Assembly: GCF_013167455.1 (NCBI RefSeq) | Contig: NZ_CP038328.1 | Direction: 5' to 3' (one strand) | Length of the DNA: 64,000 bases | From: Escherichia coli O157:H7 | GTDB taxonomy: Bacteria > Pseudomonadota > Gammaproteobacteria > Enterobacterales > Enterobacteriaceae | Shown: one piece after another, positions 42,001 through 45,000 of the stretch | How positions within the stretch are numbered: position 1 is the stretch's first letter | Layout of the letters: each line of letters opens with the position of its first letter | Position numbers: made by a program

Positions 42001-45000
42001 TTTTTCATCGAATGAACTCCAAAAAACACACAATAATATTAGGCTTAGCCTAATGCAATTGTCAATAGGCTATGCCTAACGCTTCGAGAGTAGGTATTGC
42101 CTAATGCGATGCGCATAGGAGACTATTAAGCAATGCTTAGTGGTAAAGACTTAGGCCGAGCGATAGAGCAGGCCATTAACAAAAAAATTGCATCAGGAGC
42201 CGTCAAATCAAAGGCGGAAATCGCACGTCATTTCAAAGTCCAACCACCATCAATCCATGACTGGATTAAGAAAGGTTCGATAAGTAAAGACAAACTTCCA
42301 GAACTATGGCGTTTCTTTTCTGATGTGGTTGGTCCAGAGCATTGGGGGCTTAACGAATACCCCATACCAACCCCATCCACTTCAGATACAAAAAGTGAAC
42401 TTTTAGACATAAACAGCCTTTATCAAGCCGCCTCTGATGAAAAAAGAGCAATTGTGGCTTTCCTCTTATCTGGAAATGCTACGGAGCCTAGTTGGGTTGA
42501 TCATGACGTTCGTGCCTACATTGCCGCAATGGAAATGAAGGTAGCTAACTATCTGAAAAATCAAGAATCAAAACGGAAAAGCCAGAACATCACCAAGACA
42601 GGAACTTAAACTTATATGGTCCGACGGGAAATTCCTAGTTCCCGTTAGTTAACTCCTACTACCTCTCCCACAAACCATCACCTATTAGGTCGCACCCAAA
42701 TCATTAGGCGTAGCCTATTGACAAGCAATTAGGCATTTCCTATAGTTTTCCCATACCAACCCATCCCGTCCCACACAATACAGGGCAATACCTAGAGTTA
42801 CCCGGCAGTGGTCAGGGATTAAGTAGCCAGCCCGAGGCGTAAGAACATGACGGCAGGGTTCAACTTTAACTATGCAGCAGGTTTTTGTTCCGCTACCCCG
42901 GCGTTAAGGGGATATGAGGTCAGCATGGATACTCTTGATCTTGGCAACAACGAATCTCTGGTGTGCGGCGTGTTTCCCAACCAGGACGGCACGTTCACCG
43001 CGATGACGTATACCAAAAGCAAAACGTTTAAAACCGAATCTGGCGCGCGTCGCTGGTTAGCAAGAAACTCTGACTAATGAAATCTGGTAATTAAGGAATC
43101 CTCCACGGGGGGAGAGTGGTGCACACGCGCCGGACACAAGCAAGCATCCGGCATGCTCTTTAACAATCTGGATATCCATAACAGTAAAAATCTACAGATT
43201 GCCGTTCAGTTTTCTGGCCAACTCTTCAATAGATGGAGGTGATACGTAATCCGGATTTTTATTCATAAGAAACTGATTTTCACAGTACAGGCACCTGCTT
43301 TTATGAAAAAATTCATATTCTCTAACCGGGAATGGCTGAAGTATCGATACTATCTTTTGTCCAAAACATTTTGGACAAAGATGCATGATTATGCTGCCGC
43401 CGTTCACGGTTACCTCCTTCGAGTACACAAAAGTTCCCGACTCAAGTTGGCTAAGGATATAACCTTCCGTCTGAGCCTCAAAGTTTTCAAATTCTGCAAT
43501 TTTAGCTTTGAGAGAAGCATTTATTTCTTGATAAGTGCCCACCAGCTCAACGAGAGACACGCATTCGCGCTGAATAGATGCAAGCTTTGAGTTCAGTTCA
43601 CCAATAGCCGCATTTACTTCAGCTTGAGTTTTTGCCTCGTTCATTAGTTTTGCAATCTGGGCGGTTTCACGAATAGCCGTCATTGCTGCCGTTAATTCAG
43701 CGATCACATTCAATACTCTTATTGTTGTTGGGGATATCCAGATTAACAAGATCCTTGTTGTTGGGGAATAACGGGGACCACCTCGCCTGACGTGGTAAAA
43801 AGCAGGCACACAACACGAAAGCACACGGCGAGGGACACCATTAAATGGTGGCTTAAGCAATCACGCGAAGCGCAATCTGCCATTATGACCGATGAAATCC
43901 CGTTAGATGATGCACTGTTACAATTGCGGGAATTTATCGACGAAAACTCCGGTGAATTTTTTGTTCAGGTCTGGGGAAATGGAGCCAACTTCGACAACAC
44001 GATTTTGCGCCGTTCATACGAACGGCAGGGGATCCCCTGCCCGTGGCGTTACTACAACGATCGCGATGTACGCACAATCGTTGAGCTGGGGAAAGCCATA
44101 GACTTCGATGCCAGAACGGCTATTCCATTCGAAGGTGAGCGCCATAATGCACTTGATGACGCCCGTTACCAGGCAAAATACGTTTCAGTTATCTGGCAAA
44201 AACTGATCCCGAGTCAGGCTGATTTTTAATGTTCAACCGTCGCCAGTTGTCGTTGATATTCTGCAACTGGCGCGTTCCGGAGTGATAGCCATGAGCGAAC
44301 AGTACCTGATAACGCTCGACGAGTGGAAACCAAAACGGTTCAGTCTCCCAATAACAAACACTACCCTGGTGAAATACGGAAAACTAGGATACATCGTTCC
44401 AAGACCACAAAAAATTCGTGGGCGTTGGCTGATAGATCGCCGAGCAGTATTTGTTGGGCCTGGTGAAACGGGAATTGCGCCGGAAATTCATACTGGCGAT
44501 GATGATGCACTGAAGGAGATTTTAACTCATGTCACCGAGGCCACGAAAAAACAGCACTGACGTAGCCGGTCTTTACGAAAAGTTTGATCGCAGAACTGGC
44601 AGAGTTTACTACCAGTATAAAAATCCTGTGACTGGAAAATTTCACGGACTCGGAACAGACAAAGGTAAGGCAGAAAAAATCGCTTCCACAGCCAATCAGC
44701 GAATAGCTGCAGCAGAAGCTGAATATTTCATGCGCAAAATTGATGAAAGTCCGTCAGCAACAAAACGTCGGGGTATCAGATTAAAGGCATGGGTTGATCG
44801 ATATCTGAAAATACAGGACACGCGACTGAAAAATGGAGATATTGCAGCTACAACTCACAAAGAAAAAACTCGAATGGCTGCATACCTGGTTTCCCGTCTG
44901 GGAAACCACCCATTGAAAGAACTGGAAGTAAGAGACTTTGCATTAATACTGGATGAGTGGCTGGATAAAGACATGGTCAGTACAGCGAGAGTAAATCGTG

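Follow-up and report, generated by a model that had tools for sequence, protein, structure and literature searches.

The window analysed here is a stretch of 64,000 nucleotides from Escherichia coli O157:H7 (contig NZ_CP038328.1), and it carries the O157:H7 prophage Sp6, inserted between potB and potC. Across 50 kb the window was 99.3% identical to the Sakai feature labelled "prophage Sp6; lambda-like phage". Our subject is an open reading frame (ORF) in the early-left region of this prophage, located at 43792..44229 on the plus strand, which begins with GTG and encodes 145 residues. The initial annotation had described it as a DEDDh exonuclease gene without its Exo I strand and had concluded that the prophage had probably lost most of its early-left operon. 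The segment 42000-45700 was 99.95% identical to Sakai Sp6, the segment 43100-44300 was 100% identical to EDL933, and the area round the ORF was 100% identical in many O157:H7 chromosomes. The same locus is recorded as ECs_1503 in Sakai Sp6 and as EDL933_RS08260 in EDL933, with no difference of substance from the window.

The left landmark of the region is racR (42133..42609, plus strand), a RacR-type prophage repressor gene that is so named by PGAP and matched NCBIfam NF049929 (TransRepsrRacR) with 246.8 bits against a cut-off of 200; the immunity region of Sp6 is of the RacR/YdaS/YdaT type. A consensus scan found a candidate sigma-70-like promoter (TTGACA-17-TATAGT, 11 of 12 matches; 42718..42746, plus strand) between racR and the next gene, and from its position this site is probably the early-left promoter, pL- or PdicB-like, that would transcribe the exonuclease ORF, xis, and int. 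The first gene of the early-left operon (42925..43077, plus strand; called by PGAP) encodes a DUF1391 protein (Pfam PF07151, E = 6.6e-30) of the YdfA/YdaF type, and its position matches that of ydfA in the Qin prophage and ydaF in the Rac prophage. A reverse-strand gene for 171 residues, ECs_1504, follows it; in the convergent intergenic region between them (43070-43200), nothing significant was obtained by terminator scan or RNA fold. Downstream of the ORF lie two intact genes, xis (44291..44560, plus strand; Pfam PF07825), whose product WP_000003742.1 is identical in the STEC1587 prophage, and int for a lambda-type integrase (44529..45647, plus strand; Pfam PF09003 and PF00589). The integrase end of Sp6 is at about 45803 according to the boundary of the Sakai feature, and potC (45814-46608) follows directly past it, succeeded by potD, cobB, nagK, and lolEDC.

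The frame of the exonuclease ORF was confirmed to be open, and its residues 6-135 matched Pfam PF16473 (Rv2179c-like 3'-5' exonuclease) with E = 1.2e-46. However, the match spanned only positions 47-177 of the 177 in the profile (74%), whereas positions 1-177 were covered in an intact relative, which supports the initial view that the exonuclease is truncated at its N-terminus. Codons 1-13 of the ORF (43792-43830) consist of non-coding DNA from upstream of the reverse-strand gene and show no homology to exonucleases; the real homology begins at 43831/43832. The remnant proper occupies 43832..44229 on the plus strand and corresponds to codons 692-823 of the intact gene, namely its last 132 codons.

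Within this stub, Exo II (GANFD, in GNGANFD) and Exo III (HNALxD, in HNALDDA) are retained, and through the intact relative they align with GMSFD and HDSIHD of the T4 DexA structure 8KEL. Exo I (IDLET; IDFET in DexA) lies at residues ~642-646 of the intact 823-residue protein, upstream of the junction, and in the alignment of the intact domain with 8KEL it is ~45 residues N-terminal to RDTIKWW, where the homology of the window starts. The initial assignment of the motifs was consequently sound, with the D-x-E of Exo I lost and Exo II and Exo III kept as in DEDDh exonucleases, but the loss is not confined to the Exo I strand, since 691 of the 823 codons (84%) are gone. A complete PF16473 domain with its own translation start is likewise not found in the ORF, and no Shine-Dalgarno sequence precedes either the GTG at 43792 or the ATG at 43885. 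It is from the latter ATG that the Sakai annotation derives a 114-residue product (ECs_1503, "exodeoxyribonuclease VIII"), whereas PGAP lists EDL933_RS08260 as a pseudogene, "3'-5' exonuclease; incomplete; missing N-terminus".

The Asp and Glu of Exo I are two of the four metal-binding carboxylates in DEDD nucleases. The stub also lacks the first ~50 residues of the fold, that is, the N-terminal third including a core beta-strand, and because this third and Exo I are missing, the fragment is unlikely to fold. Without the two carboxylates, the N-terminus of the fold, and start signals, the stub would be at most passively transcribed and would give no active enzyme. We therefore regard it, with high confidence, as a non-functional pseudogene remnant that is predicted to be neither translated nor active.

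The region was compared with intact relatives in four prophages, namely STEC1587 (locus L004) and vB_EcoS-640R1 (L002), both at potC, a RacR-immunity prophage at ompW (L005), and an O55:H7 prophage at tRNA-Ser (L009). Their common plan consists of a ydfA-like gene, a variable reverse gene, dicF, dicB, a ydfD-like gene, a gene for an exonuclease of 805-823 residues (813-823 at the potC attachment (att) site), xis, and int. The same architecture is thus present in four independent prophages differing in immunity region and integrase, as well as in Qin of K-12. Full-length homologues from these relatives aligned with the window ORF with an N-terminal gap of 691 residues, in agreement with the truncation proposed initially. 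In vB_EcoS-640R1 the exonuclease gene measures 2,442 bp, and its last 398 bp together with xis, int, and potC were 99.8% identical to 43832-45700; the stub itself was 100% identical to the 3' end of this intact gene at the same att site. The Stx1a prophage of STEC1587, also at potC, carries in this order a DUF1391 gene, the same reverse gene for 171 residues, dicB, a DUF1482 gene, a gene for an 823-residue exonuclease, an identical Xis, int, and potC.

Searches against phages and genomes split the region at 43815-43832. The left part matched a "hypothetical protein" cassette of the phages PhiR29 and PhiR49, and the right part matched the 3' end of long "exonuclease" genes. By blastn, 42757-43831 corresponds to 9001-10075 of the STEC1587 locus L004 and 43832-45700 to 13024-14892, and these break points and the junction sequences place the junction at 43831..43832. 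The missing segment is L004 10076-13023, exactly 2,948 bp. The microhomology at the junction was 0 bp with a left parent of the L004 type and 2 bp (GG) with one of the O55 type, and such values point to illegitimate recombination. The difference is probably a deletion rather than an insertion.

The lost segment comprises ~400 bp with a dicF-like locus, dicB, a DUF1482/ydfD-like gene, and 2,074 nt of the exonuclease coding sequence (codons 1-691). Neither dicB nor the DUF1482 gene is present in the window, although both occur in the collinear relatives, and Rfam gave no match to DicF in the window. Rfam recognised DicF in vB_EcoS-640R1 and in the ompW prophage. In STEC1587, Rfam found no DicF even at E <= 1, and manual alignment of L004 10251-10320 revealed a dicF-like variant with a conserved 5' part and a shortened terminator hairpin. 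Because the STEC1587 copy is a variant that Rfam misses, the direct ancestor of the window prophage may or may not have carried a canonical dicF.

Qin of K-12 offers a further comparison: its operon (dicA, ydfA-ydfB-ydfC-dicF-dicB-ydfD-ydfE-(IS2)-intQ) has the plan and gene families in common with the Sp6 early-left operon. Qin ydfE (L011 5079-5843) corresponds, at 91% identity, to the first 255 codons of the exonuclease gene discussed here and is a pseudogene as well. Qin keeps the 5' end of the exonuclease gene, cut by IS2, together with dicF, dicB, and ydfD, whereas in Sp6 the exonuclease gene survives only as its 3' end and those other genes are lost, so that the two remnants complement each other. 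The integrases also differ, that of Qin being dead and that of Sp6 working (PMC2669165). Of a Qin-type dicB operon, the window retains only the ydfA-like gene and the 3' end of the exonuclease gene. On sequence comparison, the early-left region of the window appears to be a deleted derivative of such an operon and not an intact member.

A 70-mer spanning the junction was found in 266 of 5,426 complete E. coli genomes, with at least 99% identity in each, and every serotyped record in a sample of 60 rows was O157. The undeleted left junction was found in 176 other genomes. These 266 complete genomes were assembled independently. The junction is therefore real and clonally fixed and is no assembly artefact, and its exact break points can serve as a clonal marker.

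As for the intact gene, its 823-residue product carries a complete PF16473 domain (positions 1-177) at residues 641-813 (E = 1.4e-60), which matched T4 DexA (8KEL) with E = 1.5e-6 and with Exo I, Exo II, and Exo III all aligned. PF16473 is the family of T4 DexA, the protein of PDB entry 8KEL (PMC12153337), and of its bacterial homologue EcD. DexA is a stand-alone enzyme of 227 residues, whereas the intact prophage protein has the domain at the end of 823 residues; the window copy, which unlike DexA has no Exo I, is predicted to be incapable of acting as a member of this family. Residues 262-625 of the intact protein are homologous to residues 278-591 of RecE (36% identity, E = 4e-56), and the homology ends at RecE residue 591, so the nuclease domain of RecE is not included. 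With the NCBIfam ExoVIII model (PRK09709), the intact protein reached 258.8 bits, far below the cut-off of 1269. In Rac, RecE (exonuclease VIII) ends in a catalytic 5'-3' nuclease domain, whereas the intact prophage protein has a DEDDh 3'-5' domain instead and no recT partner; recT was found neither in the window nor in the vB_EcoS-640R1, STEC1587, ompW, and O55:H7 prophage loci. A Rac-type RecE/RecT module, with the RecE nuclease domain and an adjacent recT, is thus not what these loci contain. Judged from its domains, the intact protein joins a segment like the middle of RecE to a DexA-like DEDDh domain at its C-terminus and has no RecT partner. The label "exodeoxyribonuclease VIII" in older annotation arises because the middle of the intact protein is homologous to RecE, and this old name misleads for the exonuclease family in question.

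Taken together, these comparisons make it very likely that Sp6 underwent a deletion in its early-left, dicB-type operon and that the ORF is what remains of the exonuclease gene there, a dead 3' stub. In the proposed course of events, the ancestor of Sp6 would have carried an operon of the Qin type with a ydfA-like gene, a reverse Rip1-like gene, dicF, dicB, a ydfD-like gene, an exonuclease gene of ~820 codons, xis, and int. A single illegitimate deletion of ~2.95 kb, poor in microhomology, would then have brought codon 692 of the exonuclease gene next to the DNA upstream of the Rip1-like gene. Lost in this event would be dicF, dicB, and the ydfD-like gene, along with 84% of the exonuclease gene. 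The stub would since be transcribed, at most, in passing toward xis and int, which the deletion would have left untouched.

Several observations weigh against this reading. No exact undeleted parent was present in the collection, the best match to a chimeric left-junction query for such a parent being 98.1% identical, and outside O157 the left flank was at best ~94-95% identical to any relative found. In contrast, the right flank was 99.8-100% identical to another prophage, vB_EcoS-640R1 at potC. On these flanks, a joint between two parents is indistinguishable from a simple internal deletion. In addition, the frame of the stub is still open and shows no decay relative to the intact genes. However, an open and undecayed frame is expected because the clone is young, and loss of function is not proven thereby. 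The O55:H7 copies were 93% identical and lie at another att site (tRNA-Ser), and for this reason the deletion cannot be dated against O55:H7.

The jump in identity at the junction speaks for a second history, in which the junction is an illegitimate joint between two co-resident lambdoid prophages, that is, a module exchange; the loss of genes would be identical and only the history would differ. In favour of such an exchange, vB_EcoS-640R1, which matches the right flank, has no Rip1-like cassette, and in O157 genomes this exonuclease 3' end is present in 5-7 paralogous copies. Moreover, the window differs from Sakai Sp6 by 303 mismatches, nearly all of which lie at 12-20 kb, a pattern that is typical of inter-prophage exchange and suggests exchange with paralogous prophages. 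On the other hand, three undeleted prophages show both flanks collinearly, with the order and orientation unchanged, so that one internal deletion is the simpler account, and mosaic identity can also come from later homologous exchange. We consider the two-parent joint a plausible history that is nevertheless clearly the less probable one.

A different ancestor, in line with the initial annotation, would have had an early-left region of the Rac or lambda type with recET or bet/exo, kil, and sieB; on this view the exonuclease would have been a small DEDDh enzyme standing alone, of which only the first strand is missing. The initial annotation was correct that no homologue of recET, bet/exo, kil, or sieB lies between racR and xis, the segment 42610-44290 holding only the DUF1391 gene, the reverse gene for 171 residues, and the stub; homologues of the lambda Red genes (exo/bet/gam) and of lambda Kil were likewise not found between the repressor gene and xis. 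Some features do agree with a Rac- or lambda-type ancestor, as the immunity region is of the RacR/YdaS/YdaT type, Rac has sieB, kilR, recE, and recT to the left of racR, and dicB encodes a division inhibitor like kil, so that a kil-like function was indeed lost. Nevertheless, recET, bet/exo, lambda kil, and sieB were absent from all four intact relatives examined. The ompW prophage, which shares the racR immunity (95% over 42000-43182), carries dicF, dicB, a DUF1482 gene, and a gene for an 823-residue exonuclease and not recET, and the collinear STEC1587 relative at the same att site likewise carries genes of the dicB type, which speaks against a recET-type ancestor. The intact gene of 813-823 codons is not small, it shares with RecE only the segment noted above, its ExoVIII score falls below the cut-off, and no recT stands beside any intact copy. 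Such an ancestor is thus largely refuted and appears improbable. The early-left deletion itself was correctly surmised, amounting to 2,948 bp relative to the collinear potC prophage, but the genes thought to be lost were never present in the intact relatives; those actually lost are dicF, dicB, the ydfD-like gene, and the 5' end of the exonuclease gene.

A further explanation holds that the stub is expressed, for instance as 114 residues from the ATG at 43885, and has a non-catalytic role such as poisoning or modulating dimeric DexA-like exonucleases of paralogous prophages. In favour of expression, the frame is open, a strong promoter-like site precedes it, and it is followed by xis and int, whose transcription is required; enzymes of the DexA family act as dimers or tetramers. 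However, the lack of a Shine-Dalgarno sequence at both candidate starts and of the N-terminal third of the fold, with its core beta-strand and Exo I, argues against it, and conservation inside a clonal lineage is uninformative. We judge a role of this kind very improbable. That the truncation is an artefact of assembly or annotation, for which only the general proneness of repeated prophage sequence to misassembly can be adduced, has a negligible probability and is refuted by the recurrence of the junction 70-mer, with no variant, in complete genomes from many laboratories and platforms.

Defects in this part of Sp6 have been reported previously. Asadulghani et al. (2009, PMC2669165) assigned an "Exo VIII-type" system to Sp4, Sp6, Sp9-Sp12, and Sp14, of which only Sp10 has it intact, and in their Table 1 the general recombination function of Sp6 is scored "D" (disrupted). 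According to the same table, Sp6 is also defective in the repressor, portal, head, and minor tail functions and has no host-specificity gene, which bears out the initial inference of a partly defective element. The pseudogene is thus already known from both the PGAP annotation and this publication, and its own importance is small, as it is one of many documented defects in a well-studied O157:H7 prophage; what is added here is where exactly the break points lie, how large the deletion is and what it took away, and to which family the neighbouring gene belongs. As regards the spontaneous excision that the initial annotation had proposed to assay by PCR across the att site, the result is already published: Sp6 forms circles spontaneously, and after transfer to K-12 a marked copy is able to integrate at the same locus (PMC2669165). 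Excision is intact in this respect, and because Sp6 excises and transfers, the deletion did not disable xis or int.

Instead of neutral decay, the deletion might represent a selected domestication, in which the toxic part was lost and the Rip1-like defence gene and mobility were kept, although we consider this doubtful. If it were true, dicF, dicB, the ydfD-like lysis gene, and the nuclease would constitute the part toxic to the host, exactly what the deletion removed. The outcome would be a mobile prophage that is harmless to carry and bears the effector genes nleL, espN, and espK, with possible protection of O157:H7 from phages sensed via their small terminase.

The neighbouring gene ECs_1504 (43192..43707, minus strand) opposes the early-left operon. 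Its 171-residue product belongs to PHROG 1244 and consists of a coiled coil followed by a four-Cys zinc ribbon. We found 109 homologues in Enterobacterales, none of them named. Across 31 homologues C111, C114, C139, and C142 were invariant and the N-terminal coiled coil was conserved. The AlphaFold2 model (pLDDT 91.6) retrieved in Foldseek PDB entry 9OOX, Rip1 of phage HK446, with E = 5.6e-7, a probability of 1.0, and a target-normalised TM-score of 0.72. The family profile matched chain 9oox_L with E = 1.4e-23 (positions 6-151 against 16-160 of 164), the four Cys aligning with those of Rip1, at a pairwise identity of 27%. ECs_1504 thus shares with HK446 Rip1 full-length homology of sequence and predicted fold, the same layout of coiled coil and four Cys, and a reverse orientation in the early-left region; HK446 rip1 is reverse-oriented in the pL operon, just beyond N. 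NCBIfam and Pfam gave nothing for the 171-residue protein except a sub-threshold Pfam coiled-coil match, and PADLOC gave no significant match for it, for the 148-residue product of the corresponding gene in the ompW prophage, for the intact exonuclease, or for the DUF1391 protein.

From the profile and the model, ECs_1504 is a Rip1-family homologue and a candidate anti-phage gene. The title of entry 9OOX presents Rip1 of HK446, "ring interacting pore 1", in complex with the small terminase of T6, and secondary reports portray Rip1 as a defence protein, encoded by prophages, that detects an invading phage through its small terminase, the ring of which it binds. By analogy, ECs_1504 may bind a small-terminase ring and act in defence as Rip1 does. 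The gene is annotated as hypothetical in all records compared, and its assignment to the Rip1 family may bear on the phage resistance of O157:H7; beside the pseudogene question, this assignment is the only item that is new, and mildly so.

Next to the DUF1391 gene, ECs_1504 has the same position and orientation as sieB in Rac, so the sieB position is not empty, as had been supposed, but is filled by a Rip1-family gene. SieB itself was considered as an identity for ECs_1504 and rejected, since BLASTP against Rac SieB gave E = 40 and only position and orientation are common. The slot after the DUF1391 gene is variable in dicB/Rac-type prophages: a Rip1-like gene occupies it in the window, STEC1587, and the O55:H7 prophage, an unrelated gene for 148 residues (PHROG 6315) in the ompW prophage (L005 8557-9003, minus strand), sieB in Rac (L008 8672-9160, plus strand), and ydfC with small ORFs in vB_EcoS-640R1 (L002 2272-3376).

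The deletion ends 124 bp upstream of the Rip1-like gene, and the region upstream of that gene (43708..43831, minus strand), collinear with L004 9001-10075 up to 43831, is preserved. Within it are exact 13-bp direct repeats, TTGTTGTTGGGGA, at 43722-43734 and 43755-43767 (plus strand), 33 bp apart, for which 0.08 matches were expected by chance; they may be a binding site for a regulator.

Elsewhere in the window, genes for type III effectors, nleL/espX7 and espN, take the place of the tail-fibre end of the prophage (1785-8125, minus strand), with espK located where the window begins. The prophage has a truncated tail assembly gene I and no J or host-specificity gene. A sar antisense RNA (10100-10166, plus strand) and the Arc and Ant genes, a module like immI of P22 (~9220-10600), are located between the tail genes L and K. 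An ORF for 859 residues (18137-20716, minus strand), the positional counterpart of the Sakai portal gene ECs_1544, contains a 162-bp tandem repeat in 3.3 copies with 95% matches (18597-19129). Rfam matches at 32307-32473 and 36097-36271, both on the minus strand, correspond to the small RNA STnc100 and the sok antitoxin RNA, the latter adjoining a hokD-type toxin gene. On the host side, potD and cobB are separated by 155 bp (47652-47806) in the window, EDL933, and Sakai, and ymfA (DUF3592) and ycfZ, absent there, are present between potD and cobB in the vB_EcoS-640R1 and STEC1587 loci.

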